The notes: a model not told the origin generated them from the sequence alone. 26,415 nt of DNA from a virus (IMGVR_UViG_3300038530_002606:1-26415), one strand, 5' to 3'; numbered from the stretch's first letter, positions 3,001 to 25,325 are shown. Program-made: numbers and translations.

Positions 3001-3486
3001 TACAAAGTCTGGCTCTTTGTATTTACGGTTGAATTCATTATCAAACTGTCTATCTAAAAGACCTCTGCCCCTTGTCCACTCAGCAGCGTCGATTTGCCCC
3101 ATGTCCATCATTTTGTTAAGCCGCTTTACCTCAGCGGCAAAACCGTTCATGTGTTGGGCGCGTGCCTGCTCTTTGCGTTTTAAGGCACGGCGGTCCTCAT
3201 TTCTTTTTTGAAGTTGGAGCCGACGTTGCTGGTCTTGTAGTCTCCCCTCCTGTATGAAGTCAACTTCCTCCGGTGTGAATTCCTTAAAGTTGGGTTTGAC
3301 AAGAGATGCTTCGATCTCCTGCATGGCTGGAAGAACGTCTTGTGCAGTGTCCTGCCGTACCGTGACTTCCTCAACCTGACCGGGCCGTTCATTAAAAAAA
3401 CGACGGTTCTGTTGCTGCTGCTCAAACTGTGAAACTTTGTCTTCAAATGAAGGCTGGACCGGCTGCGAAGGATTTACTTGGGACAA
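1..3486 (-). CDS. Giant internal virion/ejection (polyvalent-type) protein with a zincin HExxH motif; truncated by the window edge (>1162 aa)
   Basis: Missing from the ORF track. Manual translation from TTG at 3486 (AGAGGA RBS upstream, 1 nt after the previous stop) gives MSQVNPSQPVQPSFEDKVSQFEQQQQ... with no stop down to position 1. Contains Gly/Ala-rich hydrophobic helices (IASIAGGVLGAAGGGTI) and SAVLSHEFVHNLQ at 475-489. Confidence 0.85.
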   Translation of the reverse strand, partial: MSQVNPSQPVQPSFEDKVSQFEQQQQNRRFFNERPGQVEEVTVRQDTAQDVLPAMQEIEASLVKPNFKEFTPEEVDFIQEGRLQDQQRRLQLQKRNEDRRALKRKEQARAQHMNGFAAEVKRLNKMMDMGQIDAAEWTRGRGLLDRQFDNEFNRKYKEPDFVNEGRVYNPFEFRHVPLYNNPEENVQIGEMRVNTRHYIDNDMMLPERMYQSEMGDKKFEVQNGEVLYFDGRETPTQVFEYLNANGDGTRMAQLAKSLSELELLHTRDMTTSDRIMATLAYSGERFGKAFMDMFPSVASTIEDWLFVPIQERVLEGTDIEAPGLAGIWGGDERVNWLSYLQEQRPVFFDDITTESSVAIGEAIPGFMATIATAFATRNPRAVAGTAEATGLARLGSTVASTTRNMYSGVRGTISQSMPYLVNKLRNEQRYLDMGLTPEQAKQNAAADIAAGLVAVYGSNKLLGGLNSFAMKNPAFKQAFLSSAKYKFPHIVAKGFTREAIQEAFDESFHTALTATLDRADFFGEREDGDFLIGARELLIASIAGGVLGAAGGGTIDSIHVINALDAEFLKDTVPKVGDRATFHDGTPMTLVDEDKTFIRDTPRDTDVEIQLTEIDPKSPDGLTYEQTGRYRNGRVPKVTESNKDKFERAWKNHYYQHMVKEEVEHRPVNERRNILSRAFDSLRTFSEGKGVDPEMFGDPNSEIYEGAGRANGQRKIDLASADAELAYALAGKSLPDIRLGESPARTGERKFKPLKGTSRSDFKKAGLSRFVKGMNQEQRETFVRKAKESVERLNVRTSLQDALAEQALTAAEDRPTATYDRDVAKIQKDAKATAKNFIRSTDSARFWLGMRSKSKQAIMGPSTPFEGMAVPEIVALAADQMVAQQVSDAASADEQVGQPTHLDKDSRFFGTKPSPEAVSILENLLKNYRSMGLVTGEVVAPPSEAAAELVESMRIAGTSVVFVNSMATEAVRDRSTGIIIVNASEFQNDPNSVISAVLSHEFVHNLQFYHPKKYKALVKGLKSINPDMLTDGAKEYMFRLAQSEALRQGVELQRQSFTDAEVVQFIQDNPQVAMEIVPYAVTQLVEAADGDMNRALARAFSGMGRGKLGRFVGKMRRFISAIRGGQNVSQAWSSASAWDQVLLAFESAAFEYRTEGPTLPVD

Positions 3487-3487
3487 C

Positions 3488-5587
3488 TTATGATCCTCTG
3501 CTACCTATTTGCTCTTTGTCAAAAGATTGTTCAAACGCAATCACGCGGTCGTAATACTCACGCCGCGCAGCGTTGAACTCAGCACTGTCAGGCTGTAAGT
3601 CAGGGTTCATCTTTTGAATGATTGGGTTGAGCCTTTGTATGACTTCAATTTCTTTCTTTCGACGAGCCTCCTTATCGCCTTGGAAATACTTCTTGGCTGA
3701 ATCGGGGTGTGCCAAACGTCGCAAGTCACCTAGCGTGGTTCTATCACCCAACTCCTGTGCGACATAGTTGGGTGTGTCCATCGAAGTGACTTTTCCAAAG
3801 TTCGGGTTTGGCGATCCGTCCTGTAAAGTACGGTTCATATCTCGTTCTACTGCTGCATCACGGGCCATAATTTTTTGCTCTTTGGCTTTGTCATCAGCAG
3901 CGGCACGGTAAGTCTCTGACGGGAAGTTGATGGGTGATACAACTCCACCAACATCGGCTATTCCGCGAAGTTGACGCTCTTCTTTCTGAGATTGAGCAAC
4001 TTTGCCAAGGTCACGCCCAGTTTCTTTTTCAGCCTTTTTCCTTGCAGCAAACTCTGCTTCTTGAGTGACCATGGGACGCGCAAGTGTCTCAGCACGACGT
4101 ATCTTCAATTCTGCAATTTTTCTACGATTGTTGACGATTCGTGCGTCACGCTCTCGAAGGTGGGCCTCGAAAGCAGCATCGGCGTATTCTTGCCTGCCTT
4201 GACCATAGATTTGCGTAAGTTGCATCCGATATTCCATCGGATCTGCCTCTTCGATTTGACCAATCTCCGTTTCAAGAAGAGAGATATCTACATCAATTTC
4301 ACGAACAGTTTCTTGGACAACCCGATCAGTGTGTTCCTGCTTATACCGCTCCATGAGGAATTCTTCACGGCTCAACGGAGGCGGAATAATTGGGTTGCCC
4401 TCATCATCAATCTCGAACTGGTCGTTGTCTTGTTTGTATTGATTTACCGCTTTTTGCTGCTCTAAGTAGGCGTTGTAATCAGCAGTTGCTTTTTGGGTGG
4501 TTTCGCTAAATTTCTCACGAAGTTTGGCATTGTCAATACGCTGATCTTCTTGCTTATTACGAATCGCCGTTTTTGCTTCGGCTGCACGACGATTTCTGTA
4601 TGAAATGTCTTCTTGGATTTTCTGCCTAGCCTCAGCGGCTTCCTGCTGTGTTTTTTGCTCTGCGGTTTGTCTAGCAAAACCGCTGGTGGCACTAAAAGTT
4701 GCTGACCCACGGTCAAACAAATCTTGTAATGCACCTTGACGCTCTTCTTCACGCAGGTTTGGATCACGCAGAATCTCAAGATACTCACCCTGCAACTCTT
4801 GATACATGTCACCAAACTGTTGATCTTTGTCCGCAAGATTCTTCAGTTCAGTCATTTGTTTGTCAAATGCTGACTTAGCAACCTTGAACGCTTCTGTTTG
4901 TGGCGAACTTCCATCGCTGTCACCCTGCGCTCTTGCCGCCTTAGCCTCATCCTCTCCAGCAAACACAAACCTGTTCTTCTCAGGGTCAAAGTTTACTGGT
5001 GTAAAGGCGTCAATCTCTGCGTCATATCTATAGTTCTGTCCACCGCTCTTGACGATGGTATCGTCCATGTCCTGCGGTTGGTTTGTTTGGGCTGGGCCTT
5101 CAAAGGTCGGCCCCGTTGAACGACTATTTATAAAACGCTGTAAGTTGGCAGGATCTCGGAATACCCGAGTTTGCCTTCGTGTGTTTGCAGAGCGCATGGC
5201 AGATTGCTGGCGACTACGATTTTTTTTCGCCTCAAGTTGTGTTCGCAAACTGCGGTCGAGTCGTTCTTGTTCTATCTGCTTTACAAAGTTTGGAACAGGA
5301 GGAAGAGGTTTTGGTGCATCTGGAAAGTCAGAAGGTAATGTGAACGGTTCTGGCTCCGGCCCCGGCCTTCTTACTTGCGGCAACGCATCAGGAAACTGCT
5401 TAACATCCAGTGGATTTTTTCCCAAAGGGCGCTGCGGGATAGGCTCACGCCGACCCGTCATCGGGTTGAATCTAGTGTTTGGGTCAGGCTTAGAACCACG
5501 TCTACGCCCCATGTTCTGGAATGCTTTGCCGCCGGAAATGCGACGATCATCAAGCCGTCGATCTCGTCGTTTAGGTCCGTTTGCCAT
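3488..5587 (-). CDS. Putative internal virion/ejection protein (699 aa, coiled-coil rich)
   Basis: GAGG RBS; Arg- and Pro-rich N-terminus followed by long Q/E/K/A/R helical tracts; lies directly before the giant ORF, as podovirus ejection genes do. Confidence 0.65.
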   Translation of the reverse strand: MANGPKRRDRRLDDRRISGGKAFQNMGRRRGSKPDPNTRFNPMTGRREPIPQRPLGKNPLDVKQFPDALPQVRRPGPEPEPFTLPSDFPDAPKPLPPVPNFVKQIEQERLDRSLRTQLEAKKNRSRQQSAMRSANTRRQTRVFRDPANLQRFINSRSTGPTFEGPAQTNQPQDMDDTIVKSGGQNYRYDAEIDAFTPVNFDPEKNRFVFAGEDEAKAARAQGDSDGSSPQTEAFKVAKSAFDKQMTELKNLADKDQQFGDMYQELQGEYLEILRDPNLREEERQGALQDLFDRGSATFSATSGFARQTAEQKTQQEAAEARQKIQEDISYRNRRAAEAKTAIRNKQEDQRIDNAKLREKFSETTQKATADYNAYLEQQKAVNQYKQDNDQFEIDDEGNPIIPPPLSREEFLMERYKQEHTDRVVQETVREIDVDISLLETEIGQIEEADPMEYRMQLTQIYGQGRQEYADAAFEAHLRERDARIVNNRRKIAELKIRRAETLARPMVTQEAEFAARKKAEKETGRDLGKVAQSQKEERQLRGIADVGGVVSPINFPSETYRAAADDKAKEQKIMARDAAVERDMNRTLQDGSPNPNFGKVTSMDTPNYVAQELGDRTTLGDLRRLAHPDSAKKYFQGDKEARRKKEIEVIQRLNPIIQKMNPDLQPDSAEFNAARREYYDRVIAFEQSFDKEQIGSRGS

Positions 5588-6897: not shown

Positions 6898-7269
6898 TCA
6901 CCCCATGTGTTGCATGAATACTCTGATTTGCGCTTTCGGGTCGGCTGAACCATCAGCCTTGCTAACCGTAAACCGAACCGCGTAAATACCTCGTAGATCA
7001 ACATTAACCAGTGCGGGACGACCGCTTGAAAGGTAGTGGTTTGGCCCAAATGGGTACTCTGGATTTGCCCAGTTTTCGCCATCTACCGAAACTTCCATAA
7101 CTACCGTTACGCTGCCGAGGCTGCCTACCCCACCGTCGGGGTCAGGCAAAAGGATAAAACTGCCGAAACTAAACGCTCCTGCATAGAAAGCATCGGAAGA
7201 TTCACCTTCAGCAGTGAGATTGATTAGAGAGTATCGGTCGTTTACAGAGCCTCTGTACTCAAGAGTCAT
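6898..7269 (-). CDS. Small beta-sandwich virion protein (123 aa)
   Basis: Preferred start is ATG 7269 (MTLEYRG), coupled to the upstream stop at 7259. The motif VVMEVSVDGENW...AVRFTVS resembles discoidin/galactose-binding-like jelly rolls. Confidence 0.6.
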   Translation of the reverse strand: MTLEYRGSVNDRYSLINLTAEGESSDAFYAGAFSFGSFILLPDPDGGVGSLGSVTVVMEVSVDGENWANPEYPFGPNHYLSSGRPALVNVDLRGIYAVRFTVSKADGSADPKAQIRVFMQHMG

Positions 7270-7864
7270 TGTTTTGCTCCTGTTCTTTTTTGCGCCGTGC
7301 TTCTTCAGCCTTGCGGCGAGCCTCACAAGGGCTACATTTTTTGGGTTCGCGAACAGGGTCGTCAACGCCCCGGAAGTGACTCATCTGGCTCATGCCCTTG
7401 TCTCCGCCATCAACAGCGTTTGGTGGCGGAACTGCATCTGATTTCCACGCATACAGTTTTTCTTCAGGGTCAAGGCCCACATAGCCTGAGCCAGTCAGTT
7501 TGCGGAACATGTTAAACCACCACCGGTTCAACAATGCCCGGCGACGGCTGCAAGCGGCACACATTGGCACAAGGCCAAGCGTCAAAACCTTGATAATCCA
7601 ATGGACGTAATCCCCCAAACCTGATGTGGGGTACTCAAATACCCGATACCCATAAAGGGTCAAATCTGCCGCATATTGGTCACGATCAAATTTTGGGTTC
7701 TCACTCAAAAAGTTGCCACATTTAAGCATGCAAGTGCCTTTGCTCGGAGCGCCACCAAACAGGCCCGCTTTGCAAACCCCGTGGTATCGAGAGTCAATGT
7801 TTTCCCATTGCGAGCATTGAATGTTTGATGGTGGAACCATGTAGTCAATAGTGTTGTCTTTCAT
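7259..7864 (-). CDS. Cys-motif protein with GLGD...CxxC..R motif (201 aa); possible tail-protein chaperone or metal/redox protein
   Basis: ATGA overlap with the Cys-rich gene. Four N-terminal Cys, then GLGDYVHWII...PMCAACSRRRALLN and a second CSPCEARRK. Confidence 0.7.
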   Translation of the reverse strand: MKDNTIDYMVPPSNIQCSQWENIDSRYHGVCKAGLFGGAPSKGTCMLKCGNFLSENPKFDRDQYAADLTLYGYRVFEYPTSGLGDYVHWIIKVLTLGLVPMCAACSRRRALLNRWWFNMFRKLTGSGYVGLDPEEKLYAWKSDAVPPPNAVDGGDKGMSQMSHFRGVDDPVREPKKCSPCEARRKAEEARRKKEQEQNNDS

Positions 7865-10800
7865 AAAATTACTGCCCTTGGATTAGTCCATTTGCAAGAC
7901 GGCTGGGCTGGTGCCCTTTTCCAAATATCCTTGTCGCATTCTGGGTTGTTGTTCTCATCAAGGTTCAAACCGTGTTTGTAGTAGAAGCCGTCACCGGGAC
8001 TGTTTTGGTCATAATACGGTGGTATCCCTGCAGAGCCACCACCGGTGTTCCAGTAGCCTTCTAGCAAATTATTGTAAGACCCAAAAATGCAATCATTCGG
8101 AGCGTCTTCATCTTTGATTATTACAAATCTTCCTTGCCCCTGCCGACCAATAGTCCCTGAACCCGCATCGTAAGAGGTGCCACCGCCTTTGTATTCCAAC
8201 GCAATTTGGAACCCCTTTTCAAACCCTTGAATTGGTCGTTCTTCAAAATCATCGCATTCTCCGGCGGTGTATACATTGCCTCTGTCAAAGGGTTTTGTTG
8301 AAAGCGGTCCGCAACTGACTGACACTATTTGCAAGCCAATTTCATCTTCAAAGTAACCATCAGCCCATTGACCAAGAGTAGGGTTGACTCCGGGTACTCC
8401 CCCACAAGCGTCCAGACGGCAAGCGTTACCCGACCCTAACCGAACAGTTTTACCCTTACCCTTAAACTCGCACCGCACACATTTACCATCGGGTGTGAGT
8501 ATGTCGTCACACGGTGTATCACCACACGCTGCTGGATCGTGACCAACATCTTCACTTGTTTCCCATGCAATTGGCGTACATGGATCAGAATTAGAAAAAG
8601 CAGTTGGTTTTTTGGTGCAAGGTTGCCATTTGTTTACACCACACTGGGCAATGCTGCCGTCTGGGTATGGCTGATTTTCCCAAGTGTGGTATGGGTCGCC
8701 CCAGTTCCCGTTGCCGTCTTCATCTCTAGGGGTGTTTAGTTCTACACAAAGACCGCCAGTACAGACAGTGCCTGAAGGGTTATAGGATTCCCATGGACAC
8801 CAGCCGGGGTCACCCGGAATCGGTGCAAGTTCTCTTCGGCAATTTACATTAGCGTACTTATTGTCGCCGCGCGGAACAAAAGGTTCAATTGTGTCTGGGC
8901 AATGCCTGCCATAGATACCTTGTGGCGCACCTGCGTACTGTCTGCGAGGAATAATCCAAGAGATGACATCGCCAGAAGGCGAAGTGTAATCGCCGCCTGA
9001 ACAACAAGGCGGAACATTTTGACCTTGAGGACAGTTGGGGGAGGTCACGCGCGGCACTCCCTCAGGCACAAATTCGCAACCTTTTAATGTGACAGTCTGA
9101 TCGCCAACGATGTAATCACAGTCTGCTTGAGGACGTTTGCACCGGTGGTAAATCCCATCTGAATCTGGAATTGCAGACCAGCCACCAAGGTTGCCATTGC
9201 CATCGTCGGCAAGACCATATGGGCAAAGTTGACCGGGAGCAGGGCCAAGATAAAGGCGTTGCTCATCCGTAGTCGGTTCGCCAGTGTTTGGGTTGTAGTC
9301 AATTATTTGCTCACAACAGTTTGTGTTGTAGCAGTCAATTTCATGGCAGCAAAACTGCGAGCCGCAGTATGACCCTTCACCACACTGGTGGCCGCCCTGA
9401 CAATACGCCGCATAGTTTCTTGAAACTGGATTAGTCTTAAAAGTGCATGGACTGGTTCCAGTAGGTGTGACTATGGCGGGAGACACATCGTCTGGACTTC
9501 TAAGACCTGAGTAATCAGTAGGGTCAAAAGTCCCCTCAACAGTCGCACCACCCATGCAGGATATGTTTTGTAATACGTTTTCGCCATCCGGCTGCTTGTC
9601 ACCCTGCGGCCAACGAACGTAATCGTCTGGGCATGTGGCATTAGTTGCACCTTGCAGCGGACAGTGCTTGATGCACGGGATAGTTGTTGGCGGCATTGCT
9701 CCAATCAACTCTTGAGCCAACGGGTTGCAACATTCTGGTTTTACAGTGTCAGGATCCTCTCCACAATCAAGGGTGCCTCGACCTTCGTTTTGGCAATATC
9801 TTTGTGCTTCTAAAAAAGCCGCTTGACCAAACTCAAACTTTTGTCTTGCCCTGATATACGCATTGGCAGTTTCTTCACACGGCCAATCCATTTCTACAGT
9901 AATACTGGTGCCTGCATATTTCGCATCGCAACAGTCGTTGTAGGGTTCATTGTAATTCCAAACACCTTCGTCGCTTTGGTCTAGGTCTTTTCCAAACTTC
10001 TGCCACCATTCACCCCGTTCAGTGCAGTCGTTAATAGCACCGCAATGTTCTATGCAGTTAACTGGCTGTGGAATTGGTTGGCATGAACCAGCCACGCAAT
10101 AGCAGTTTGGTCCACAAATTGTGCCTGTAACACAAGGGTCGCCGGGGCAATCACCGTTGTCGGGTATACCGCCACCGATTCCCCTTGCCATTCTGCCACC
10201 ATTAAGGTCTAAAAACTCACTTTCATGCTCGACCTTTGTGGTTATTGGAATGACAACTCTGCCTTCAGCACGCTCAAGCGCGCCTTCACTTTTAGCGACA
10301 GTAAGCGTCTGCTCCTCGGTAAAAATCTGCGGGTGGTCAGACGTTTCGATTGCCGTTGATGTAAGACTCCGACGCCTATGCTTTTCTCGACGCTTGACTG
10401 CGTCTTTCTCGGCATAAAACTCTTTGTTGAAAGCGTTTCTGTAGAGGTTGCCATAACCCCGGAAAAAGGCATCTTTTATGAGATTGTAGGAGCGTTGAAC
10501 CACACCCACGATCCCAGAGGTCCAACCGTTGCAAGAATCGGTGCAAGCCTCACAGGCTGGGTTCGTTGATCCGCCGCCGTATGTTCCTTGTGGGCGTCCT
10601 CCAGATGCAAGACAATCAAAAGTGCTTGTCACAAAACAGTCGTGAACACTGCCCGGTGTACTGCAACGACAGCAAATAACCTGATCGTCGCCACAAGGAA
10701 AGGCAGTGCCACTTTGGTTGAGGCATGGGCCACATACGGCTCTCAAAGTGTTGAGACCTCTGGTTGGGATCTCACCCCAGCGGCCAGAAGGAATGGTCAA

Positions 10801-11163
10801 TTGCTGGAGCCTGCTGGTTATGTACTGCAACGACATGTGGTCGCGGAACCGGTAGCCAAGTGCATAGGGAGTAGCCCGCAGAGCAAGTCTTGTTATTTGC
10901 CCAAAAATCTTACTAGACCTGACACCAAACTCAGTGCTGCGCCAGTTTTTGTTTGGGCCGTAGTGCCACGCTGCTTTGTTTCCAATACGGTCTCTGAAGG
11001 ATGATGTGGACATCTCAGAAATATTGATGTGTACCGAGGTGACCGGCACGGTCTGCGGCTGCGCATCAGAGGGGCCGCAAGTGCAACGGTCAGTGTTGCA
11101 ATCGTTGCAAGGCAGTTCAGGAACTGAGCAACTGCAACAGCCAACCTTTTGCAACATGCTCAT
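7861..11163 (-). CDS. Giant Cys/Gly/Pro-rich tail or receptor-binding protein (1100 aa)
   Basis: About 73 Cys by manual count (~6.6%), many CC and CxxC; no signal peptide; ATGA-coupled at both ends; follows the tail-tip-like genes. Confidence 0.75.
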   Translation of the reverse strand: MSMLQKVGCCSCSVPELPCNDCNTDRCTCGPSDAQPQTVPVTSVHINISEMSTSSFRDRIGNKAAWHYGPNKNWRSTEFGVRSSKIFGQITRLALRATPYALGYRFRDHMSLQYITSRLQQLTIPSGRWGEIPTRGLNTLRAVCGPCLNQSGTAFPCGDDQVICCRCSTPGSVHDCFVTSTFDCLASGGRPQGTYGGGSTNPACEACTDSCNGWTSGIVGVVQRSYNLIKDAFFRGYGNLYRNAFNKEFYAEKDAVKRREKHRRRSLTSTAIETSDHPQIFTEEQTLTVAKSEGALERAEGRVVIPITTKVEHESEFLDLNGGRMARGIGGGIPDNGDCPGDPCVTGTICGPNCYCVAGSCQPIPQPVNCIEHCGAINDCTERGEWWQKFGKDLDQSDEGVWNYNEPYNDCCDAKYAGTSITVEMDWPCEETANAYIRARQKFEFGQAAFLEAQRYCQNEGRGTLDCGEDPDTVKPECCNPLAQELIGAMPPTTIPCIKHCPLQGATNATCPDDYVRWPQGDKQPDGENVLQNISCMGGATVEGTFDPTDYSGLRSPDDVSPAIVTPTGTSPCTFKTNPVSRNYAAYCQGGHQCGEGSYCGSQFCCHEIDCYNTNCCEQIIDYNPNTGEPTTDEQRLYLGPAPGQLCPYGLADDGNGNLGGWSAIPDSDGIYHRCKRPQADCDYIVGDQTVTLKGCEFVPEGVPRVTSPNCPQGQNVPPCCSGGDYTSPSGDVISWIIPRRQYAGAPQGIYGRHCPDTIEPFVPRGDNKYANVNCRRELAPIPGDPGWCPWESYNPSGTVCTGGLCVELNTPRDEDGNGNWGDPYHTWENQPYPDGSIAQCGVNKWQPCTKKPTAFSNSDPCTPIAWETSEDVGHDPAACGDTPCDDILTPDGKCVRCEFKGKGKTVRLGSGNACRLDACGGVPGVNPTLGQWADGYFEDEIGLQIVSVSCGPLSTKPFDRGNVYTAGECDDFEERPIQGFEKGFQIALEYKGGGTSYDAGSGTIGRQGQGRFVIIKDEDAPNDCIFGSYNNLLEGYWNTGGGSAGIPPYYDQNSPGDGFYYKHGLNLDENNNPECDKDIWKRAPAQPSCKWTNPRAVIL

Positions 11164-11867
11164 CTATTACGCCTCGGCAGATTTCTCCACCTTTTGTTTG
11201 CTTTTTGCATCTGACGAGCCACACCCTCTGGATCGTTGGTTTGCGAGCAAGAAACCTGCAAATCGTTTTTTCCGTACAGCCCAATATGCACCCGCCCAAA
11301 CTCGCCCCGAGTAAACACTACGGGGACGCCACCCACACCACTGTCCGGGTTCCGAACTGCAAGTGGCAAAATATTTACGTTGCCGGGTATGGCGGTGTTA
11401 TCTGGGTTGTTTGGCGCAGCCACACCGTGCAAATTTCTAACAACATCTTGGCTGCTTTGGGCTGCTGCTTTGTAATTTGTATCGCAAATATTACGGGCCG
11501 AAATCTGTCCGCCGTCAAATTGGTCTAAAACAAACTTGGGAACACCAATACGTTTCATCATTTTTTCAAATGGCGCGCCCTCTGATTCTCCCGGTGCAAA
11601 CAAAGTGTCGTAAAAATTGAACGCGGGGACCAACACATAAGTGCCTGAATCTTTATCGTCAGGCGCATCGGGGTCATTCAGGCCGCCAGCCTGAATGTAG
11701 CAAAACAAAACGAATTGGTTTGTTGCATCTCCGCCTCCAACGCGGTCAAATAACTGACCAAAGGATCTCTGCGATTCACCGATGCGAGATTCAAGAAGTT
11801 CTACGGTTCGACTAAGTTCGTCAAACTTGCGTTGGAACTCTTCACTAAAAGGGTTTGTTGCTGACAT
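11160..11867 (-). CDS. Putative tail-tip/baseplate protein (235 aa)
   Basis: N-terminal coiled coil (FQRKFDELSRTVELLESRI) followed by a beta-rich region; coupled to both neighbours; assignment rests on position. Confidence 0.5.
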   Translation of the reverse strand: MSATNPFSEEFQRKFDELSRTVELLESRIGESQRSFGQLFDRVGGGDATNQFVLFCYIQAGGLNDPDAPDDKDSGTYVLVPAFNFYDTLFAPGESEGAPFEKMMKRIGVPKFVLDQFDGGQISARNICDTNYKAAAQSSQDVVRNLHGVAAPNNPDNTAIPGNVNILPLAVRNPDSGVGGVPVVFTRGEFGRVHIGLYGKNDLQVSCSQTNDPEGVARQMQKANKRWRNLPRRNR

Positions 11868-12754
11868 TATGAGTAAAGGGGTAAGAAGGGGGCAGATTGG
11901 TACTGCGGTTCGTAAATGATTCTACCCCGTAAACCGTCCTTGTCGTCTTCAAAGGTCTCGATTGCCTGATTTACCCAAGCGGTGCTGCAAATGGAGAACT
12001 GGTAACGTGTTGCCCACGCGACCCCACCATCCCTTTCAAGCAGCGGCCTTGGGCTGGTCTGAAAACCATCCAACCGGACACGGTTGGGGTTCCAAAATCT
12101 TTGTTCTGCGTCAGGGCCAAACGGGACATAAAAGGCTTGGGAGTTGGTTTTTCCAACAAGTTTTGTCCACCCTTGTGTGTAAGGACCATTCTGGTCAATT
12201 ACCAAAGGGGTGTATTGAATGATTGAGCGGGTAAACGGCTGCCGAGTAAGAGCGTCGCCGCCAATATGGGCATCAAGATTAATGTTCGTTGGCGATTCGT
12301 CGGGAAGTTGATTGATAAGTCGGCTGTCGGGAATGCCAAAATTGTTGGTCACCCCGCCAGCGGTGTAAATCATAATGGTGTCGGCAGACACACTACTGTC
12401 AAAAGCCTCTTCTCCGACAAACCCAGCGGTCATTTCTATAAGACCCGGCGTGACAACACGGGCAGTAATATTTTGCAGCAGCACCTGTCCGTAGTACCCG
12501 GTCAAGTGAGTCTTTGAACGAATGTAGTTGCCTACTACTGTGTCTTGGCCAGAGGGATCAGAGGTGTCGGCTCCTACGCCCGCCAAGTACGACCGAAAAG
12601 CAGTCTTGGCGTCAAGCAAAAGACTTGCCTCAGACCTGCCTTTTGTTGCGTCGTACCGATAGAACGACTTCGTAGAAAACTGATTGCCAGTCCCATAGTT
12701 GGAGGTCCAACGGGCAGAAAGGCCACTAAACGGCCTTGTAATTAACCTAGCCAT
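11867..12754 (-). CDS. Putative distal tail/hub protein (295 aa)
   Basis: Aromatic beta-rich sequence. LVGKTNSQAF...VRLDG...WATRYQFSI...W resembles, from recollection, proteins that follow the tape measure in planctomycete-type prophages. Confidence 0.5.
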   Translation of the reverse strand: MARLITRPFSGLSARWTSNYGTGNQFSTKSFYRYDATKGRSEASLLLDAKTAFRSYLAGVGADTSDPSGQDTVVGNYIRSKTHLTGYYGQVLLQNITARVVTPGLIEMTAGFVGEEAFDSSVSADTIMIYTAGGVTNNFGIPDSRLINQLPDESPTNINLDAHIGGDALTRQPFTRSIIQYTPLVIDQNGPYTQGWTKLVGKTNSQAFYVPFGPDAEQRFWNPNRVRLDGFQTSPRPLLERDGGVAWATRYQFSICSTAWVNQAIETFEDDKDGLRGRIIYEPQYQSAPFLPLYS

Positions 12755-13094
12755 TTCTTAACGCCTGCACGATCTTGTCTGGTAGTTCTTGCAGTGCTTT
12801 GAGAATGGGATCATTCTCACCGCCACCAAATTCTGACACTAACCTTTGCGCGGTTTGAAATGCAGCCGGGTTTGAGTCAGCGTCAAACAAACCTTCAGGC
12901 AGGCTTGATGGTAGTTGGAAGTCAGGAACCTTTTGCTCCAAAACTTGCTCCGACGTTTGCTCTGGAGTTTGCTCTGGAGTTTGCTGCGGTGTTTGCGTGC
13001 CACCAAAGACAGATGCAAAAGCATCCTCAAAGGTGACATCTTTCATTTGCTCAAACTGGTCATCCAGCGAGAGCGTCTTCAACGTATCGGCCAC
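12747..13094 (-). CDS. Small acidic protein at the tape-measure position (115 aa)
   Basis: GTG start with a GGAGTGG RBS-like sequence; QTPE repeats; amphipathic C-terminal helix ILKALQELPDKIVQALR. Confidence 0.6.
   Translation of the reverse strand: MADTLKTLSLDDQFEQMKDVTFEDAFASVFGGTQTPQQTPEQTPEQTSEQVLEQKVPDFQLPSSLPEGLFDADSNPAAFQTAQRLVSEFGGGENDPILKALQELPDKIVQALRNG
12936..12995 (-). repeat. Five degenerate 12-bp tandem repeats encoding QTPQ-QTPE-QTPE-QTSE-QVLE
   Basis: Plus strand reads ctccaaaacttg ctccgacgtttg ctctggagtttg ctctggagtttg ctgcggtgtttg. Confidence 0.9.
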
Positions 13095-13494
13095 TGATTA
13101 CCACTCCTACGATTGCGGATTGCCTCATAGACGCTTGAACTTGAATGGACTCTACCACAACTGCTTTGGTGCCTTGGTTATTTGCGCCCCCAAAATCGAG
13201 TTGCAGAGACAGTGTTGTTGACCCACCTGAAATCTGAGAATTCAAGTTTTGAAGACCAAGTGCTGTAGCAGTTACCATGCAGCCTGTGAGACGAAACTGC
13301 GAGTAAGCAATGTCTCCGTGTTCATACACAGGACCACCAGTGACAGAGTCACCCGTGCCAGTGACTTCCTGCAAGGGAATTCTGTGCTGACCACTATATT
13401 CAAACACCTTCATTGCAAACTTTGCGGACAACCCATTTGCTGTGAAGATACCCGTGCCAAGCGCTGTTGTTGGCCTTACTACTTGTGTAGGCAT
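13060..13494 (-). CDS. Tail tube-like protein (144 aa)
   Basis: Size and pattern match the non-contractile tail-tube fold: EVTGTGDS loop, then YEHG...FRLTG, and terminal strands VVESIQVQA...VGVVISG. Confidence 0.55.
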   Translation of the reverse strand: MPTQVVRPTTALGTGIFTANGLSAKFAMKVFEYSGQHRIPLQEVTGTGDSVTGGPVYEHGDIAYSQFRLTGCMVTATALGLQNLNSQISGGSTTLSLQLDFGGANNQGTKAVVVESIQVQASMRQSAIVGVVISGRYVEDALAG

Positions 13495-13497
13495 TGA

Positions 13498-13737
13498 TTA
13501 CCCTTCGTCACTAAGACCTGTCCAGTTGCTCGCGGTTCCGCCCGCCGAGTAGTTCACGTAGAGAACCTCGGATTTTGCAGTGCCGTCAAGTCGCAGGTAA
13601 AGATATGCGTCGTGCCTGTTTGCACCGCTGTTGTTTGGCGCGCCGTTGCCGACGAGCAAGAGGGGTGCGGCCAAGTCGAGTCCGCTAACAGCAGCGGCTG
13701 ACTCGGTAAGTTGCGAAACGATATTGTGTCCAGACAT
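13498..13737 (-). CDS. Small structural protein (79 aa)
   Basis: GNGAP...LYLRLDGT...LYV...W pattern seen in short trimeric fibre modules; TAATG coupling with the adaptor gene. Confidence 0.6.
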   Translation of the reverse strand: MSGHNIVSQLTESAAAVSGLDLAAPLLLVGNGAPNNSGANRHDAYLYLRLDGTAKSEVLYVNYSAGGTASNWTGLSDEG

Positions 13738-14756
13738 TAGTATTGTGTCCCGTTGACTGTGACGCTCACATCCGGCCTACGAAGGATGCGTTTGAAGTTA
13801 GCGTCAGTAAACTTGTGATCCGAGGGGTCGCCGTTGTACCCAAGATTCTCGGTGGTGTAGGCTTGACGATCTAGTTCCACACTGGCCCGCAACCTGTTGA
13901 TGTAGTTCTCGCGGTACCGGTGTGGGGAGTTTGGAAAGATTTTCTGCTCTGCAATAGCAAGGCACGATGCCAAAATTGTTTCGCCGTGGAGTTCGCCACC
14001 CAACGGTTGTTCACCGCTGGCGATTGAGGATGGCTCATTGATTTGCTGGTATCTTAAACGATAAACTGCATCAGGAATTGGATAGATTTGGAGACGGAAT
14101 CCTGACCCTACTGTGCCAGACGCGCCCGTAGTAAACACAGCAGCAGCCAAGGGTTTGCCATCACGGTCATCAAGATATTGAAATTTGTCACGCAGTCTTG
14201 TTATGTCCGTGACCTCAATAGTCATGTCGCTACGCTGAGGGTCTGTCCCGAAGAAACTGTCGAAAACGATCGGCCCCTCTAGTCCAGCGAAATTGACGGG
14301 CAGGCTGTAAGTTCCGTTCATGTGAACGGTAAACGATCTGGTTTGCGCGCTTACACCAGTTTCTTGGTACGACGAAGTAAGAGTTAAAGTGGTGGTACTG
14401 CTTACATTGTTGACTAGATATTTTGCAACACTCCCATCTGCGGCAGTAATAGATATGTGTGAAATAGAAGCGTTGGTCACAACAGAATCCAATGCAGGAG
14501 ACATCTCGATGACCGTTGCGCTATTGTGTGTGACTTTGCAAGTGCCTGTGACCGTAGGTTCAATCGTATTGAAAGACCTTTCTTGCTTCAGAAATGACCA
14601 ACGATGCGAGGCACGTTCTCCCGGCAAAGGCTCTGGTGTATAGAACTGCCGCAACCCACGGTTCATAACGATGTCAACCTCGTCATCGCTTGTTGCGATT
14701 CCGAGTACGCTGGCGATTTCCGCCTCTAACACGTTGTAGTTAACTTCTAGGCTCAT
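13737..14756 (-). CDS. Head-tail adaptor (podovirus gatekeeper-like) with an inserted beta domain (339 aa)
   Basis: Helical N-terminus ending HRWSFL, then YSLPVNF, LQIYPIPDAVYRLRY and a helical C-terminus: the usual adaptor signature. Confidence 0.7.
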   Translation of the reverse strand: MSLEVNYNVLEAEIASVLGIATSDDEVDIVMNRGLRQFYTPEPLPGERASHRWSFLKQERSFNTIEPTVTGTCKVTHNSATVIEMSPALDSVVTNASISHISITAADGSVAKYLVNNVSSTTTLTLTSSYQETGVSAQTRSFTVHMNGTYSLPVNFAGLEGPIVFDSFFGTDPQRSDMTIEVTDITRLRDKFQYLDDRDGKPLAAAVFTTGASGTVGSGFRLQIYPIPDAVYRLRYQQINEPSSIASGEQPLGGELHGETILASCLAIAEQKIFPNSPHRYRENYINRLRASVELDRQAYTTENLGYNGDPSDHKFTDANFKRILRRPDVSVTVNGTQY

Positions 14757-17507: not shown

Positions 17508-18551
17508 TTATACCGTTTCCAGACGGAAGAGACGACGGCGATCGGTACACATGTAGTTCAAAGTGCAGTCAACGAAGACTTGGAACGTGGTGTGTTGACC
17601 GGGAACAGTGTTCGGTCCTTCTTCCTTCATCCATTCGCCGGACAAGAAGACAGGCTTGAGAACGCCCCAGTTGATGCCGTAAATCGGGTTAGTGGTTTCT
17701 GCATCCAGTTTAGGAACGTAGATGACAGGGTTTTGACGGAAAGTAAGAAGACCGTCCTTGGAAGCAATGTCGTTTCCGAGGTTGTCGTTCTGGGCCTCAA
17801 GCACCTCTTCCAATCGACCAATCACGGCGTAGTTGGTGTAGTAGCCGTAGTTGTTGCCGGTGTTGTAGGAAGCGTGTGGTACAGGAGACTTGAAGTTGGT
17901 GAAGACAGCAGCCTTACGCCACTTGCGGATCAAGTCAGTCTTGTTGATGCTCGTGTAGGCAGCGACGTAGTTTCGCCATCCAGAGAACTTCTCAAGATCA
18001 GAGTTGATGCCACCAGCACCATCAGAGAAACCAGATGGGTTCTTGCCAAGGAAGCCCTCGTCGCTGCTGGTTGATGGTGGCACGATCCAGTGTGGGATAC
18101 CAAATGGTTTGAGACTGTCGCTTGAAGAAGTTGGAGTAGACCAAAGGTTGGTTTCCATCAGTTCAGCGAGTGACAACATCGCGTCGGCTCGACGGGTTTT
18201 CACCAGTTCCACGATGCGTGCCGGATTGGCGTTCATCTGAATTTCACGACGCTCGAAAGCGTAGTTGGTGGTGCAGTGTCGCCACGGAATGTTTGCCGTG
18301 GTCATAACGTCTGCGATGTTCACATTGTCAGATTCGTACAGGCCGACGTTCTTAGCAGCGTCGGATTGCGCGAACATGACGTTCCACTGAATGCCATGAC
18401 CGGATTGGTACTGGACCTTGTACTTCTGAAGAATGTTGGGGAGTGCGACATAATCCGTGAGGGTTGACGCAATCTCCGTAAACTTCAGCCGCCCGAGATC
18501 CCGAAGGGTCACAGTAATCAGATCAGCAATTTGTGCGGCTTGCAGTGCCAT
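17508..18551 (-). CDS. Major capsid protein (HK97 fold, podovirus-type; 347 aa)
   Basis: GAGGT RBS; follows the scaffold; E-loop-like GHGIQWNV...GLYESD, spine helix IVELVKTRRADAMLSLAELMETNLW, PFGIPHW, and C-terminal LNYMCTDRRR. Confidence 0.85.
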   Translation of the reverse strand: MALQAAQIADLITVTLRDLGRLKFTEIASTLTDYVALPNILQKYKVQYQSGHGIQWNVMFAQSDAAKNVGLYESDNVNIADVMTTANIPWRHCTTNYAFERREIQMNANPARIVELVKTRRADAMLSLAELMETNLWSTPTSSSDSLKPFGIPHWIVPPSTSSDEGFLGKNPSGFSDGAGGINSDLEKFSGWRNYVAAYTSINKTDLIRKWRKAAVFTNFKSPVPHASYNTGNNYGYYTNYAVIGRLEEVLEAQNDNLGNDIASKDGLLTFRQNPVIYVPKLDAETTNPIYGINWGVLKPVFLSGEWMKEEGPNTVPGQHTTFQVFVDCTLNYMCTDRRRLFRLETV

Positions 18552-19497: not shown

Positions 19498-19849
19498 CGT
19501 AGCCACCGTTTCTATCGTGCAGGTTGAAAGCCTTGAGGTGCGCTGCACGGTGCGACCGGCTCGTAAAGATTGCTCGCCCATCCTTGGTGTAGTCAGTATT
19601 GACCCCATGTTTGGCAGCATGTTGTTTCATTTCATTGATTTGTGATGGGTGACAGCCTGCCCCCTCCGACATGATTGGCTGTCGCCATACGTCGTTGACA
19701 TCACTGTGACCACGCATCTCAACATCTACCCGACGCTTGACGGTTTCGCCGTCAAGGACCGGGTTCTTGTCAAAATCCTCCATCTCGGAGATGGTCATAA
19801 TTTTTTCGATGATTTCGCCGTTTGGCTTTTCGTAGCAATACGTTGGCAT
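19490..19849 (-). CDS. FmdB-like protein lacking the zinc-ribbon cysteines (119 aa)
   Basis: MPTYxY start and position after the portal are typical of phage FmdB-like genes; C-terminus GRAIFTSRSHRAAHLKAFNL. Confidence 0.6.
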   Translation of the reverse strand: MPTYCYEKPNGEIIEKIMTISEMEDFDKNPVLDGETVKRRVDVEMRGHSDVNDVWRQPIMSEGAGCHPSQINEMKQHAAKHGVNTDYTKDGRAIFTSRSHRAAHLKAFNLHDRNGGYGD

Positions 19850-21621
19850 TATTCCGCTGGCCTCATAATCGAAGCGGCCTCGCTGTCCTGAACACCGCGT
19901 CCAGTAAGCAGCAGGCGGCTCATCATTTCATCCTGACCCTGCCTCGTCGCACCCGGCTTGTTGACTCGTACCGATTCAGTTCTCTTGTGTACAGACCTGT
20001 TTGCAGCCTGATCTTTTTCAGTTCCAACAGGCACGCCCTGTTTGGAATCAACAACCATTTGTCCAAGATCAGGCAACTGAGTGTATTCGCCAAGCATACT
20101 AACCAGTTTACGAACATCCAGCGCAAGACCCTGCTGCTGCATCATCGGCATAAGTGGGTTTATAAATTGACCCATAACTTGCGTAAGAGCCTGCAACTTC
20201 ATGCCGGGGGTTGACTGCTGGAGGCTGTGAGGCTGAACATCAATGCTGAAGTTTACAAACTCACCCTCAGCCTTGGAGCCTTCGTATACAAACGGCACTT
20301 TGATTGAACCATTTTTGCCAACAGCCTTTTCAAGTTCCAGTTTGACAAAGCGATCTTCAAACAGATGTTGCGCAATCGCAGTCACAGTTTCTTTAACGAA
20401 TGAAATGACTTGGCTCTGCATGTCAGCAACACGGTTAGACGCTGACTGCGAAATAAGTTTGTCTTGACCTACCGTGTCAGACTGCGTACCAAGGCCACCC
20501 AGAGCGTCAAGATTGCCGCCCAAGTAGGTGAAAAGTGACTTGGTTTGCAACATGAAACCAAGGGTCTGTTGGTCGATGCCACCAAACTTGTATGTCTTGA
20601 TCGCGTCAGGATCGTCAAGGCGAATCATTTCGCCATCAGCAGCGTTTTGCAAGTTTTTGGCATCACCTTCCGCAGACCCACGGAAACCAACAATGTCTTT
20701 TTGTCGTTCTGCCTGCCGCCCTAGTTTGCGGAACAAGGTGTTAGACAGTTCGTGCATGTCAATGAGTGTGGCAACAGGAGCCAAAGGCATGGTGTTGCCC
20801 GGCACATCCGAGAACTGCAAGAAGTGATATGGCCCTTCAATCGGGCCGTTGTACTCAACCTGACGAATTAAATGGTGCGGTGCGCCTGTGTCATCGGCTG
20901 CAAATGTCAGGATCTTCCCTTCTTGCGGCAACCACATTTCCCAGAGTTCTGCGTACTCATACGCTTCGTCTTTGTCGTAAGACGTTTCATTGCCGAGGCT
21001 AAACGACTTCGGATCTCCCGTTTCATTGTTTCTGCTCCTACGAACCGCTTGGATTTTATCGGTGTCTTCATACAGGTCGGACTCTTTGACTGCATGAAGC
21101 GGCAGTCGGAACCTGTTGCCCATGAAAGCACATTCCGTCATTTCTTGGGCATTCATGTCGTGAACCCAGTCATCAAGACCAACACACTCTGCATAGGGCT
21201 GTCCTGAACGAGTCAGGAAACCACGGATAGGTTGGCTTGGCTCACTGACACCAACTTTCACAATACCCATAGAGAACAAAGCATCGACTGTCGCTTGACG
21301 CAAAGTTTGCTCAAAGTTCATTTCACCAAGCAGGTGGTTTGTTGCAAGTTCAAACTCTTTGGAAAAAATACGCAGTTCACGCTGGCGTGTTCCAATCGTG
21401 ATTGCAGGTCGGCGGGATGCCAGTTGTCTTGAATAAATGTTGATTGCCAACTCAATAAAGTTGACCGGCACACGATCAGCAGCACCCTGATCGGAGTAGT
21501 TGCGACCGACATACTCACGGAGAGCAGCCAAACGGCGGACTCTGTAAGGCTCAAGTCGCCTTCTGCTGTGGCTGACCGCAGCCTTGAGTCGGGAAATGTC
21601 TACGTTGCCGACTTTTACCAT
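19849..21621 (-). CDS. Portal protein (P22/podovirus-like; 590 aa)
   Basis: Follows terL; PVNFIELAI...RP, DALFSMGIVKVG, ELWEMW, GPYHFL motifs and a Q-rich C-terminal region. Confidence 0.85.
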   Translation of the reverse strand: MVKVGNVDISRLKAAVSHSRRRLEPYRVRRLAALREYVGRNYSDQGAADRVPVNFIELAINIYSRQLASRRPAITIGTRQRELRIFSKEFELATNHLLGEMNFEQTLRQATVDALFSMGIVKVGVSEPSQPIRGFLTRSGQPYAECVGLDDWVHDMNAQEMTECAFMGNRFRLPLHAVKESDLYEDTDKIQAVRRSRNNETGDPKSFSLGNETSYDKDEAYEYAELWEMWLPQEGKILTFAADDTGAPHHLIRQVEYNGPIEGPYHFLQFSDVPGNTMPLAPVATLIDMHELSNTLFRKLGRQAERQKDIVGFRGSAEGDAKNLQNAADGEMIRLDDPDAIKTYKFGGIDQQTLGFMLQTKSLFTYLGGNLDALGGLGTQSDTVGQDKLISQSASNRVADMQSQVISFVKETVTAIAQHLFEDRFVKLELEKAVGKNGSIKVPFVYEGSKAEGEFVNFSIDVQPHSLQQSTPGMKLQALTQVMGQFINPLMPMMQQQGLALDVRKLVSMLGEYTQLPDLGQMVVDSKQGVPVGTEKDQAANRSVHKRTESVRVNKPGATRQGQDEMMSRLLLTGRGVQDSEAASIMRPAE

Positions 21622-23348: not shown

Positions 23349-23700
23349 TCGCCCTCTTTAGGTTGTCTACGGAGTCCCCCAGAAATCCCAAGCCTCTGTT
23401 GGTAGAGCCGTTCAGCAAGCCACGAATCTGTCCAGTCCGGTGACAGTGATCCACATGGCAGGTCTTTGAATCCAAATTGCGGAGTGTCACTGGGTCTTTC
23501 CCCCCCTGCTGGTCCCACAGATCCCACCACATCTGCTTCGTCAGCCCGAACTTTCTCTTGATCTTGTCCCATCTCTGACATTCCTTGCAGATTTTGTTGG
23601 GGTAGGTCTTTCCGCTTTTCTTGACTGACCAAGTAAACTCGCTACTCGGCAACACCTTCTGACACACTCGGCACTTGCACTTGTGTTTCTTCTGGCTCAA
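23230..23700 (-). CDS. Endonuclease VII-family (His-Me finger) nuclease, probably a free-standing homing endonuclease
   Basis: N-terminal CRVC...CKEC, KFGLT...QQGG, HVDHCHRTGQIRGLL...NRGLGFLGDS...AIDYL; GGAGG RBS before TTG. Confidence 0.85.
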   Translation of the reverse strand: MSQKKHKCKCRVCQKVLPSSEFTWSVKKSGKTYPNKICKECQRWDKIKRKFGLTKQMWWDLWDQQGGKDPVTLRNLDSKTCHVDHCHRTGQIRGLLNGSTNRGLGFLGDSVDNLKRAIDYLAGTPILPSCPEDHDSEPRISSGHLDESQGQSEDAG

Positions 23701-24184
23701 GAGTCGCCTCCAGACGGGCGAGGATTTCTAGTTCCTCATTGCCATCATCGGAAAAGCGTGCTTCAGCATCGAGTTGCGACTTGGTGGGCATCAACTTCGC
23801 CCAGATTTGTGAATAGAAACTCGCAGCGTTAGATGGCGAAGCGTGGACCCATTTGAGTAGACCAACAGCACCTTTGCTCGGAACTGCGGTTTGCGGGATA
23901 TTTGAAATGGGAACTGCGGCGTATTCAAAAACGAAAGACGCAGCCTCTCGTTCTGAGCAACTACCCTGCGGGGCAAGTAAGGATAATTCAGCATACGGAC
24001 ACGTTGCCGGTTTTTTAGGAACGCGGGGTTTGGGTTCGGGCTGTATTTGTCTGACCTGCTCATACGCCGTTGCTGCTGCATCTTTTGGAGACAACCCTTC
24101 CTGTCTTAGTATTTCTCTCAGTTCTAAATACTTGTCCCAGACTCCTAGTTCCTGCAACTCGGCTTTGGTGTCCGCTTTATTCAT
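23642..24184 (-). CDS. Putative terminase small subunit (180 aa)
   Basis: Upstream of terL; helical; LLKWV...N...FYSQIWAKLMP resembles TerS oligomerisation helices. Confidence 0.55.
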   Translation of the reverse strand: MNKADTKAELQELGVWDKYLELREILRQEGLSPKDAAATAYEQVRQIQPEPKPRVPKKPATCPYAELSLLAPQGSCSEREAASFVFEYAAVPISNIPQTAVPSKGAVGLLKWVHASPSNAASFYSQIWAKLMPTKSQLDAEARFSDDGNEELEILARLEATLEPEETQVQVPSVSEGVAE

Positions 24185-25324: not shown

Positions 25325-25325
25325 G

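Follow-up and report, generated by a model that had tools for sequence, protein, structure and literature searches.

Short tails of the phi29/C1/P68 type, found in phages with a protein-primed genome, use a lower collar and a single large knob protein, and a Dit/Hcp-like domain is present in the tail knob. N4-like and crAss-like podoviruses have elongated necks, and their tail barrels consist of adaptor-derived rings or a dodecameric tube, not of Hcp-fold hexamers with a siphovirus-type tip. In the accessible text of the reviews, three tail archetypes are recognized; podoviruses rely on an ejectosome, and siphoviruses have a tube and a tip (PMC9022992). The podovirus tails of SU10 (Kuravirus) and phi24B are an assembly of portal, adaptor, hexameric nozzle, needle and ejection proteins; SU10 is the subject of PMC9509320. 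Siphoviruses are described as having no nozzle analogue in the available part of another source, which also reports that a T5 chain with two tube folds forms a trimeric ring (PMC13243795).

The window (the whole stretch of DNA analysed here, 26,415 nucleotides from the virus IMGVR_UViG_3300038530_002606) combines features of these systems. Like SU10 and phi24B, it has an adaptor of an SU10-type family and a weak, below-cutoff match to the SU10-type portal, and giant proteins of its relatives bear LPD38, as does phi24B gp47; unlike them, it has no recognized nozzle gene, and tube-fold, putative double-tube and putative tip genes lie in the nozzle slot. Compared with siphovirus tail ends (lambda gpV/gpH/gpM/gpL-J, T5 pb6/pb2/pb9/pb3, the GTA short tail and the LSH1 minimal hub), the locus shares the tube fold and the order tube, ruler slot, hub and tip, as in a siphovirus-type locus designated L180. 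However, the ruler slot holds 69-306 aa, there is neither a chaperone pair nor a recognized stopper or terminator, HDII/HDIII hub domains are not demonstrated, and the adaptor is podoviral and the giants ejection-type. With the phi29/C1/P68 type it would have in common a short tail that uses a tube-related fold, but here the genome is terminase-packaged, the adaptor is of the SU10 type, tube, hub and tip are separate genes, and polyvalent giants are present. A short tail and a giant ejected protein, here predicted from genes, are also features of N4-like and crAss-like podoviruses, the group to which the paper on DEV (PMC10925440) relates.

A preliminary description of this DNA had proposed a podo/sipho hybrid virion. 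The findings below support that proposal and include none of the outcomes that were to count against it, the morphology being read from the genes. No description of such an architecture or virion was found in the literature covered, most subscription papers lying outside it, and PMC13014141, PMC9863714 and 10.64898/2026.08.12.739948 yielded nothing of relevance.

Gene organization of the locus

The window is a contig fragment whose last gene is cut by the contig end. From the adaptor gene onward, its ORFs lie on the minus strand and abut or overlap as one operon. The features discussed here are the following:

19849..21621, minus strand: portal protein, 590 aa, podovirus-like (phrog_1216 portal, E 5e-4; Pfam SU10_portal, E 0.0012, under the cutoff)
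17508..18551, minus strand: major capsid protein, 347 aa (phrog_9953, E 8.8e-9)
13737..14756, minus strand: head-to-tail adaptor, SU10 (podovirus) type, 339 aa (family match to PF24175)
13498..13737, minus strand: 79-aa accessory protein (family in tube-type and nozzle-type loci)
13060..13494, minus strand: tail tube/Dit/Hcp-fold protein, 144 aa (AF2 model and Foldseek)
12747..13094, minus strand: 115-aa low-complexity protein (slot equals the tape-measure slot of L180)
11867..12754, minus strand: 295-aa two-domain protein (AF2 model; weak tube/terminator/Dit matches)
11160..11867, minus strand: 235-aa tip-slot protein (relatives, and slot in L180)
7861..11163, minus strand: Cys-rich 1100-aa protein (73 Cys; gene position)
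7259..7864, minus strand: 201-aa small Cys protein after the Cys-rich gene (family conservation)
3488..5587, minus strand: 699-aa Cys-free, highly charged protein (composition, slot)
1..3486, minus strand: giant polyvalent (ejection-type) protein, N-terminal 1162 aa (cut by the contig end)

The ORFs were confirmed at the coordinates previously given, and between the adaptor and the Cys-rich gene there is also a 79-aa gene, which had gone unmentioned. The longest gene between these two encodes 295 aa. Five genes, for 201, 155, 432, 699 and over 1162 aa, follow the Cys-rich gene in this order. The sequence of tube, hub and tip genes was intact in 35 of 35 loci with all three genes and is therefore not a product of chance.

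Scans against PHROGs and Pfam returned no match for the 144-, 115-, 295-, 235-, 1100-, 699- and 1162-aa proteins, no sheath or baseplate wedge among the 29 window proteins, and no recognized stopper or terminator in the window. As for cultured relatives, a search of 50,697 phage records with the capsid protein found none, and terminases were only distant. A prophage/host search of genome contigs gave one weak, uninformative match; the gene set may be of Planctomycetota type.

One adaptor family, two tail types

PF24175 (SU10_adaptor) was matched by 23 of 56 members of the adaptor family (best E 3.4e-13), with both tail types included; the window's own copy had no PF24175 match. This family is common to loci with tube, hub and tip genes (tube-type) and loci with a nozzle-like gene (nozzle-type). 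The portal matched PF23899 (SU10_portal) at E 0.0012, with 17.8 bits against a cutoff of 30, and the capsid protein is 46% identical to that of a nozzle-type locus, L028.

Among 99 adaptor-bearing loci, a count that includes near-duplicate genomes, 45 carry tube/hub/tip genes, 35 a large nozzle-like gene and 19 neither, many of the last ending soon after the adaptor. No locus has both: a single adaptor family is accompanied by a nozzle-like gene in some loci and by a miniature tube-hub-tip module in others. The 'nozzle' label of the sister gene comes from its position, its size, weak phrog_376 matches (6/25) and one pelagiphage structural protein (E 8e-5).

As the window is a fragment, a nozzle or tape measure encoded elsewhere could be sought only in complete relatives. 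The nozzle-like profile, which represents the sister family and would miss an unrelated propeller, detected all 11 nozzle-type records (10 had entered the profile or are identical to its input, and G005 was found independently, at E 4e-101) and none of 23 tube-type records, 12 of which are at least 90% complete. Together with a slot that holds no ORF above 295 aa, this bears out the earlier remark that no recognisable nozzle gene follows the adaptor and, for genes of the sister family, extends it to the rest of the genome in these relatives.

In a quick tree of the adaptor, the tube and nozzle labels need five changes, of which the starred branches force only one, and a single tube-type clade was not rejected (AU p 0.47, without 14 unlabelled rows); we claim neither repeated swapping nor a direction of change. 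A complex prediction with two adaptor copies (residues 1-312) and one tube protein scored 0.00, which speaks neither for nor against their contact.

The 144-aa tube-fold protein

The AF2 model of the 144-aa protein (pLDDT 71) retrieved, as top rows in Foldseek, a phage 812 neck entry, the R4C tube, lambda gpV and the monocin tube; in VIA, a GTA chain (Z 7.3, rmsd 3.0, 111 aligned) and the monocin tube (Z 7.2) were found, and the scores of SPP1 Dit and of lambda tip chains fell no more than about 1.4 Z below the best one. The AlphaFold/Foldseek comparison suggested in the preliminary description thus points to a tail-tube/Dit fold in the model, within which structure search cannot part a tube from a Dit or terminator. 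The protein is predicted to form one or more hexameric rings.

In PHROGs, one of 48 members of the tube alignment gave a weak match to a major tail protein (E 0.013). The top neighbour in the ESM Atlas was annotated 'Tail protein', with leads to DUF6711 and DNA_circ_N below 0.9. A locus scan with the tube alignment found nothing, and PDB sequence profile searches with the tube, hub, tip, nozzle-like and adaptor alignments gave nothing informative.

The tape-measure slot

In the siphovirus-type locus L180, genes for tail completion and major tail proteins come first, then a gene of 152 aa in the chaperone slot. They are followed by a tape measure of 766 aa (E 4.9e-45 in the tape-measure family scan), a hub relative and a tip relative. 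The tape-measure slot of this arrangement is occupied in the window by the 115-aa gene, to which no name had been given before. Its product is of low complexity with a conserved C-terminal amphipathic helix, and across loci the family ranges from 69 to 306 aa, the gap from tube to hub being 202-978 nt (median 266; 35 loci). The 306-aa version, in G007, showed a weak tape-measure match (E 0.024), and a C-terminal profile of the family had no match to the C-terminus of the L180 tape measure. Close relatives differ in length (89 versus 153 aa; 115 versus 174 aa), which is odd for a strict ruler. The 115-aa protein is likely a vestigial tape measure or a plug.

The reported lack of a frameshifted chaperone pair was reproduced: a single ORF lies between tube and hub, and positions 12741-13500 contain no XXXYYYZ slippery heptamer. 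Assorted heptamers occur in 14 of 36 loci, a count made without a chance control, and share no motif.

Candidate hub and tip proteins

In the AF2 model of the 295-aa protein (pLDDT 81), residues 1-119 resemble terminator and Dit chains (Z up to 5.5) and residues 116-260 the tail-tip chains of lambda, Sf11 and T1 (Z 3.3-3.7). These matches are weak (Z at most 5.5; Foldseek E above 0.08 against the PDB), with ribosomal proteins scoring about alike. The structural relatives among uncultured phage proteins reach E 3e-12, and all ESM Atlas neighbours are hypothetical. No profile similarity connects the two halves to each other or to the tube, and hhalign among hub halves, tube, tip and adaptor gave no significant pair. 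A single motif connects the protein with the L180 hub; it scores 17.8 bits in an iterated profile (0 of 2000 shuffles as high) but 10.1 bits with alignment A9 (1 of 2000 shuffles), and hhalign gives a probability of 14%. The protein is predicted from its model to comprise two tube-like domains and to form a trimeric hub ring. Its previous designation as hub-like is weakly confirmed by structure: the model gives weak single-domain matches to tube, terminator and Dit chains, not a demonstrated Tal/gp27 hub with HDI-HDIV domains; no Tal/gp27 chain was prominent in the fold searches, a result that excludes nothing.

The 235-aa protein has an N-terminal coiled-coil-like helix, a beta-rich domain and a conserved C-terminal Cys, found in the last 40 residues of 141 of 150 relatives. 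A total of 837 relatives were recovered at E<=0.001, and in L180 a relative follows the tape measure and hub (E 2.5e-55). It is a widespread tip-slot domain and a putative tip, the earlier tip-like label being weakly confirmed by structure. A locus scan with a long tip-domain protein found nothing, and long tip-domain fusions had no hub family match. In 28 of 33 loci, a CC/CCC motif opens the gene that follows the tip; in the window this gene encodes the 1100-aa protein with 73 Cys, which is likely a distal receptor-binding or tip protein.

Medium and giant downstream proteins

The 699-aa protein is 34% charged and 6% Pro, with no hydrophobic segment. Neither it nor seven slot-equivalents matched a tape-measure family, whereas the L180 control in the same scan gave E 5e-45, which disfavours the possibility, raised earlier, that it is a tape measure. 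It contains 0.15 Gly+Ala and 0.063 Pro, against 0.28 and 0.010 in the L180 tape measure. Its slot before the giant gene is also present in nozzle-type genomes, and it is likely a medium ejection protein.

The closest complete relative, G001, has a giant of 2875 aa, with which the 1162-aa fragment shares 37% identity over 1191 aa. The C-terminal part of the G001 giant in turn shares 33% identity (E 1e-126) with its counterpart in nozzle-type G027. LPD38/ART-PolyVal domains were found in four of eight tube-type giant ORFs scanned; the window's own fragment had no domain match in PHROGs or Pfam. Medium and giant proteins together contain 7 Cys in 54,490 aa. Both proteins are predicted from their sequences to be ejection-type and, in the proposed model, head-packaged.

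P1 is a long-tailed phage, and packaged polyvalent-type proteins in such phages count against the short-tail reading. The available portions of the respective sources place the LPD38-bearing gp47 of podovirus phi24B in the virion as a proposed ejection protein (10.64898/2026.04.10.717836) and report packaged polyvalent-type proteins in phages such as P1 (PMC5512222).

Proposed tail architecture and alternative explanations

The observations are a tube fold in the 144-aa protein, an adaptor family of the SU10 type, the fact that sister phages have either these genes or a nozzle-like one, a short tape-measure slot and polyvalent domains in giants of relatives. We infer, with a probability of roughly 0.65, a short tail in which one to four tube-fold rings, a hub and a tip are mounted on a podoviral adaptor and ejection proteins cross the envelope. 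The 12-fold adaptor would make direct contact with a 6-fold tube ring, in the way it would receive a nozzle. By the rule of thumb for tape-measure rulers, 0.15 nm per aa, 115 aa would give about 17 nm and a stack of about one to four rings. The 295-aa protein would trimerise into a pseudo-hexameric end ring, and a trimer of the 235-aa protein with the C-terminal helix of the 115-aa protein would close the channel; the Cys-rich protein would attach at the tip, perhaps by way of a metal site. Once a receptor is bound, the tip and the plug would come off, and the giant and the 699-aa protein would leave the head to form a trans-envelope conduit, as a long tape measure gives in siphoviruses.

A tip without a tube is the most probable of three unlikely competitors. 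In it, the 144-aa protein makes a single Dit-like ring, and the 115-aa protein serves not as a ruler but as plug, assembly chaperone or small third ejection protein; the virion would still be a short-tailed hybrid. The ambiguity of the structure search, the missing chaperone pair, the freely varying spacer length and the Cys-free genes at the operon end (as a tendency, three in nozzle-type and two in tube-type genomes) are all compatible with it, and two tube paralogues in 3 of 43 tube-type loci fit dedicated single rings. However, a gene ahead of the tape-measure slot, as the 144-aa gene is, has the place of the L180 tube gene, Dit genes being found after this slot, and the longest spacer has a weak tape-measure match. 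Less probable is a conventional non-contractile tail some 100 nm long on a podovirus-derived adaptor, with the 699-aa protein, or a portion of the giant, as a tape measure that has changed its place. Such a tail would suit the tube-fold gene, the Cys-free, helical-looking 699-aa protein and a slot that varies (449-1196 aa) as tape measures do, but the scan and composition of that protein speak against it, as do its slot in nozzle-type genomes, which need no ruler, and the want of a chaperone pair, slippery heptamer and recognized stopper or terminator.

We give slightly less weight again to a podoviral or contractile tail whose nozzle, sheath or other major part went unrecognized (for example the 432-aa, the Cys-rich or an upstream protein), the small genes then making an appended needle. 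The sister-family nature of the nozzle profile leaves room for it, yet the 432-aa family is present in only 9 of 43 tube-type loci, the near-complete G002, G011 and G020 pass directly from the Cys genes to the medium and giant genes, and G001 has no spare large ORF; tube-fold rings are not known to be needle parts.

Returning to the short tube-hub-tip tail, we lean, by a modest margin over even odds, to a broader view in which uncultured phages of 43-47 kb form a widespread lineage with a fourth tail architecture: a reduced siphovirus tail (few tube rings, vestigial ruler, hub and tip) would replace the nozzle on a podovirus adaptor, and an ejectosome would do the delivery job of the tape measure. 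Nozzle and mini-tail would then be interchangeable modules on one neck, and the lineage a living podo-sipho intermediate. If so, it would show how a 12-fold podoviral neck docks a 6-fold tube ring with neither stopper nor terminator, and that a tape measure's function as a ruler is separable from its function in delivery. A few small proteins would then suffice to test the podo-sipho transition. Functions would also be offered for several hundred unannotated phage proteins (837 tip relatives), with the caution that a tube gene alone is no predictor of a long tail.

Accessory genes

Of 43 tube-type loci, 36 contain the 79-aa family, as do 22 of the 35 nozzle-type loci, and the tube gene directly abuts the adaptor gene in 8 of 43 tube-type loci. 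A role of the 79-aa protein as stopper was ruled out because nozzle-type loci have it too; it is likely a small fibre or decoration module. The family of the 201-aa Cys protein is present in 24 of the 43 tube-type loci but in none of the 35 nozzle-type ones.

Gene order and exclusion of the two tail types

The window, a 26.4-kb phage fragment, carries a morphogenesis operon on its minus strand, in which terminase (phrog_2), portal (phrog_1216, with a weak SU10_portal match), a scaffold-like gene, capsid (phrog_9953) and small genes precede the following:

13737-14756, minus strand, adaptor, 339 aa
minus strand, small protein, 79 aa
13060-13494, minus strand, tube-like protein, 144 aa
12747-13094, minus strand, spacer protein, 115 aa
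11867-12754, minus strand, hub-like protein, 295 aa
11160-11867, minus strand, tip-like protein, 235 aa
7861-11163, minus strand, Cys-rich protein, 1100 aa
minus strand, 201-aa gene
6898-7365, minus strand, 155-aa ORF
5596-6894, minus strand, beta-rich protein, 432 aa
minus strand, medium protein, 699 aa
minus strand, giant protein fragment, >1162 aa

The gene order in the preliminary description is accurate for this operon, except that the 79-aa gene had been left out. From the 144-aa gene onward, no family match above noise was found in the window.

Relatives were collected from 30 loci found with the capsid protein as query and 70 + 29 loci found with an adaptor alignment; the adaptor and Cys-rich proteins of one locus, L113, are identical to those of the window. 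With iterated profiles, the 99 adaptor loci, a count that includes near-duplicate genomes, fall into 45 tube-type loci, which carry tube, hub or tip genes, 35 nozzle-type loci, which carry a different large gene, and 19 with neither, many of them truncated shortly behind the adaptor; the two gene sets never occur together. Every locus that holds all three of tube, hub and tip (35/35) keeps them in this sequence, with the small gene between tube and hub. The large alternative gene (520-1720 aa, sometimes split) is termed nozzle-like from its position and size, weak matches to phrog_376 'tail protein' (6/25) and similarity (E 8e-5) to a pelagiphage HTVC115P structural protein whose gene follows that of the capsid.

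Predicted tube, hub and tip proteins

The 144-aa protein had been described as tube-like, and its model (pLDDT 71, built from 48 sequences) is consistent with this: Foldseek (best E 5.5e-4) and VIA-align (best Z 7.3, rmsd 3.0, 111 residues) both returned almost exclusively tail tube, Dit, baseplate and Hcp chains, a homogeneous list with middling Z values. Structure matches tube, Dit and terminator alike, and it is the gene position that favours a tube. Two tube-fold paralogues per cassette occur in L058:10934-13770, L068:8541-10396 and L073:11262-12207, one adjoining the adaptor gene and the other the spacer gene, which suggests dedicated top and bottom rings.

The model of the 295-aa protein (pLDDT 81) consists of two domains, the first of which (residues 1-119) aligns with terminator, Dit and baseplate chains (Z up to 5.5) amid unrelated rows scoring similarly. 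The second (residues 116-260) aligns with tail-tip chains of lambda, Sf11 and T1 (Z 3.3-3.7, high rmsd). The full-length structural relatives are uncharacterised proteins from uncultured phages. According to PMC13243795, a T5 chain with two tube folds forms a trimeric ring. The earlier label of hub-like holds weakly, for a putative reduced hub rather than a demonstrated Tal.

The 235-aa family, with 837 relatives, combines an N-terminal helix with a beta-rich domain ending in Cys, and 141 of the best 150 relatives carry Cys near the C-terminus. As the following gene begins with CC or CCC in 28/33 loci, a metal-linked tip is suggested. In some relatives the tip domain terminates proteins of 600-770 aa. 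Tip-domain proteins include P0105, P0160, P0178, P0067 (three copies of the domain), P0145 and P0115, of which those of 600-770 aa may be full hubs; in P0145 and P0115 the domain is preceded by a long acidic low-complexity region resembling the spacer protein.

The slot before the hub

An ordinary siphovirus-type locus, L180, was found through its tip relative. It encodes a tail completion protein, major tail protein, chaperone-slot gene, 766-aa tape measure (E 4.9e-45), 275-aa hub relative, tip relative (E 2.5e-55) and Cys-rich gene, in this order. The gene order of this one locus shows the hub/tip module as a predicted long-tail end cap and the slot before the hub as the corresponding tape-measure slot. 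The hub link between L180 and the window family consists of one motif, which scores 17.8 bits with the iterated profile, higher than any of 2000 shuffles, and less with A9, another alignment used for this comparison.

In tube-type phages this slot measures 202-978 nt (median 266), and its product, 69-306 aa long and of low complexity, has a conserved C-terminal helix. The 306-aa version (genome G007) matches a tape-measure family weakly (E 0.024), and the spacer C-terminal profile found no match in the L180 tape measure. By a rule of thumb of 0.15 nm per residue, 115 aa would suffice for no more than about 17 nm, the height of four rings.

Neck and terminal large proteins

Pfam SU10_adaptor is matched by 23/56 adaptor homologues, both tail types among them. 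On the adaptor tree tube-type and nozzle-type loci interleave (5 changes), with branch support too low to rule against a single tube-type clade (AU p 0.47). The 79-aa family occurs in both tail types, and in 8/43 tube-type loci the tube gene lies immediately next to that of the adaptor; these two observations argue against a stopper, and we infer from them a direct adaptor-tube contact.

The adaptor contains a beta-rich insertion (14300-14520, residues about 80-150) that is apparently missing from adaptors of 257-278 aa. A weak match (E 0.01) links the adaptor family profile to chain 23gd_B, a 'distal tail protein gp20'. Three consecutive adaptor paralogues, reminiscent of multi-ring necks, lie in L099:7462-10936.

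At the operon end, both tail types encode a medium Cys-free protein followed by a giant of 1450-3850 aa, and 33 ORFs or ORF pieces of this kind contain 7 Cys among 54,490 aa. The closest complete relative is G001, whose capsid shows 94% identity. The window giant fragment shares 37% identity with the 2875-aa giant of this genome, and the last 850 aa of that giant share 33% identity with its counterpart in nozzle-type G027. LPD38 or ART-PolyVal domains were detected in 4/8 tube-type and 1/5 nozzle-type giant ORFs scanned. In PMC5512222 such polyvalent proteins are predicted to enter the host with DNA, and 10.64898/2026.04.10.717836 places LPD38-bearing gp47 of podovirus phi24B in the virion as a proposed ejection protein. 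Polyvalent proteins are not restricted to podoviruses.

Proposed tail architecture

Beyond the folds, gene content and mutual exclusion observed, we infer a stoichiometry, contacts, tail length and mode of injection, with a probability of about 0.65. Portal and adaptor would support a short stack of one to four tube rings. A double-domain trimer and a tip trimer would close this stub, with the Cys-rich receptor-binding protein attached to the tip; the lumen would be plugged by a vestigial ruler, and upon triggering the medium and giant proteins would leave and form a conduit.

The main rival, an otherwise identical hybrid that has one Dit-like ring and lacks a ruler, is unlikely. A long tail with its length set by the 699-aa protein, a possibility raised in the preliminary description, is quite improbable: neither this protein nor its seven equivalents matched a tape-measure family, and their composition differs from that of the L180 tape-measure control. 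A hidden nozzle or sheath is very improbable; G001 has no spare large ORF. The profile of the nozzle-like family matched 11/11 nozzle-type records (10 by construction) and 0/23 tube-type records, of which 12 have a completeness of 90% or more.

The stub-tailed phage proposed here would resemble podoviruses in its neck and predicted delivery but fails on the nozzle, and it is siphovirus-like at the tail end but without long tape measure and chaperones, in line with the podo/sipho hybrid originally put forward. All parts would use known folds. A literature search, mainly of open-access main texts, found no virion of this plan, and we lean slightly towards a distinct tail architecture.

Additional observations

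The 155-aa ORF aligns from residue 33 with a 123-aa gene of G001, so its true start probably lies further downstream, close to where the 201-aa gene ends. The 432-aa protein, possibly a fibre or spike, lies ahead of the ejection-type genes and is present in only 9/43 tube-type loci; in the other members this place is taken by an unrelated gene of 464-482 aa or by none. The nozzle-like gene after the adaptor is split in L052, L053, L080, L086, L093, L096 and L107, where an ORF of 76-102 aa forms the N-terminal part and another of 520-870 aa the body, at times several genes apart; 'split nozzle' appears in the title of PMC13730344. In L024 and L025, with capsids 61% related, the genes that follow the capsid gene, one of them for a giant with similarity to that of G002, are encoded on the other strand.

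At 23230-23700 and 24181-24402 lie an Endonuclease VII gene, which separates the presumed small terminase gene from that of the large terminase and whose place in G001 is taken by an unrelated ORF, and, upstream, a small HNH gene. Upstream of the terminase (24399-25783) lies a series of very small Lys/Arg-rich ORFs, one matching DUF6321. G001 also encodes a serine recombinase (L033:7108-7800; phrog_95, E 1e-43); the group may be temperate, and prophages could thus reveal the host.
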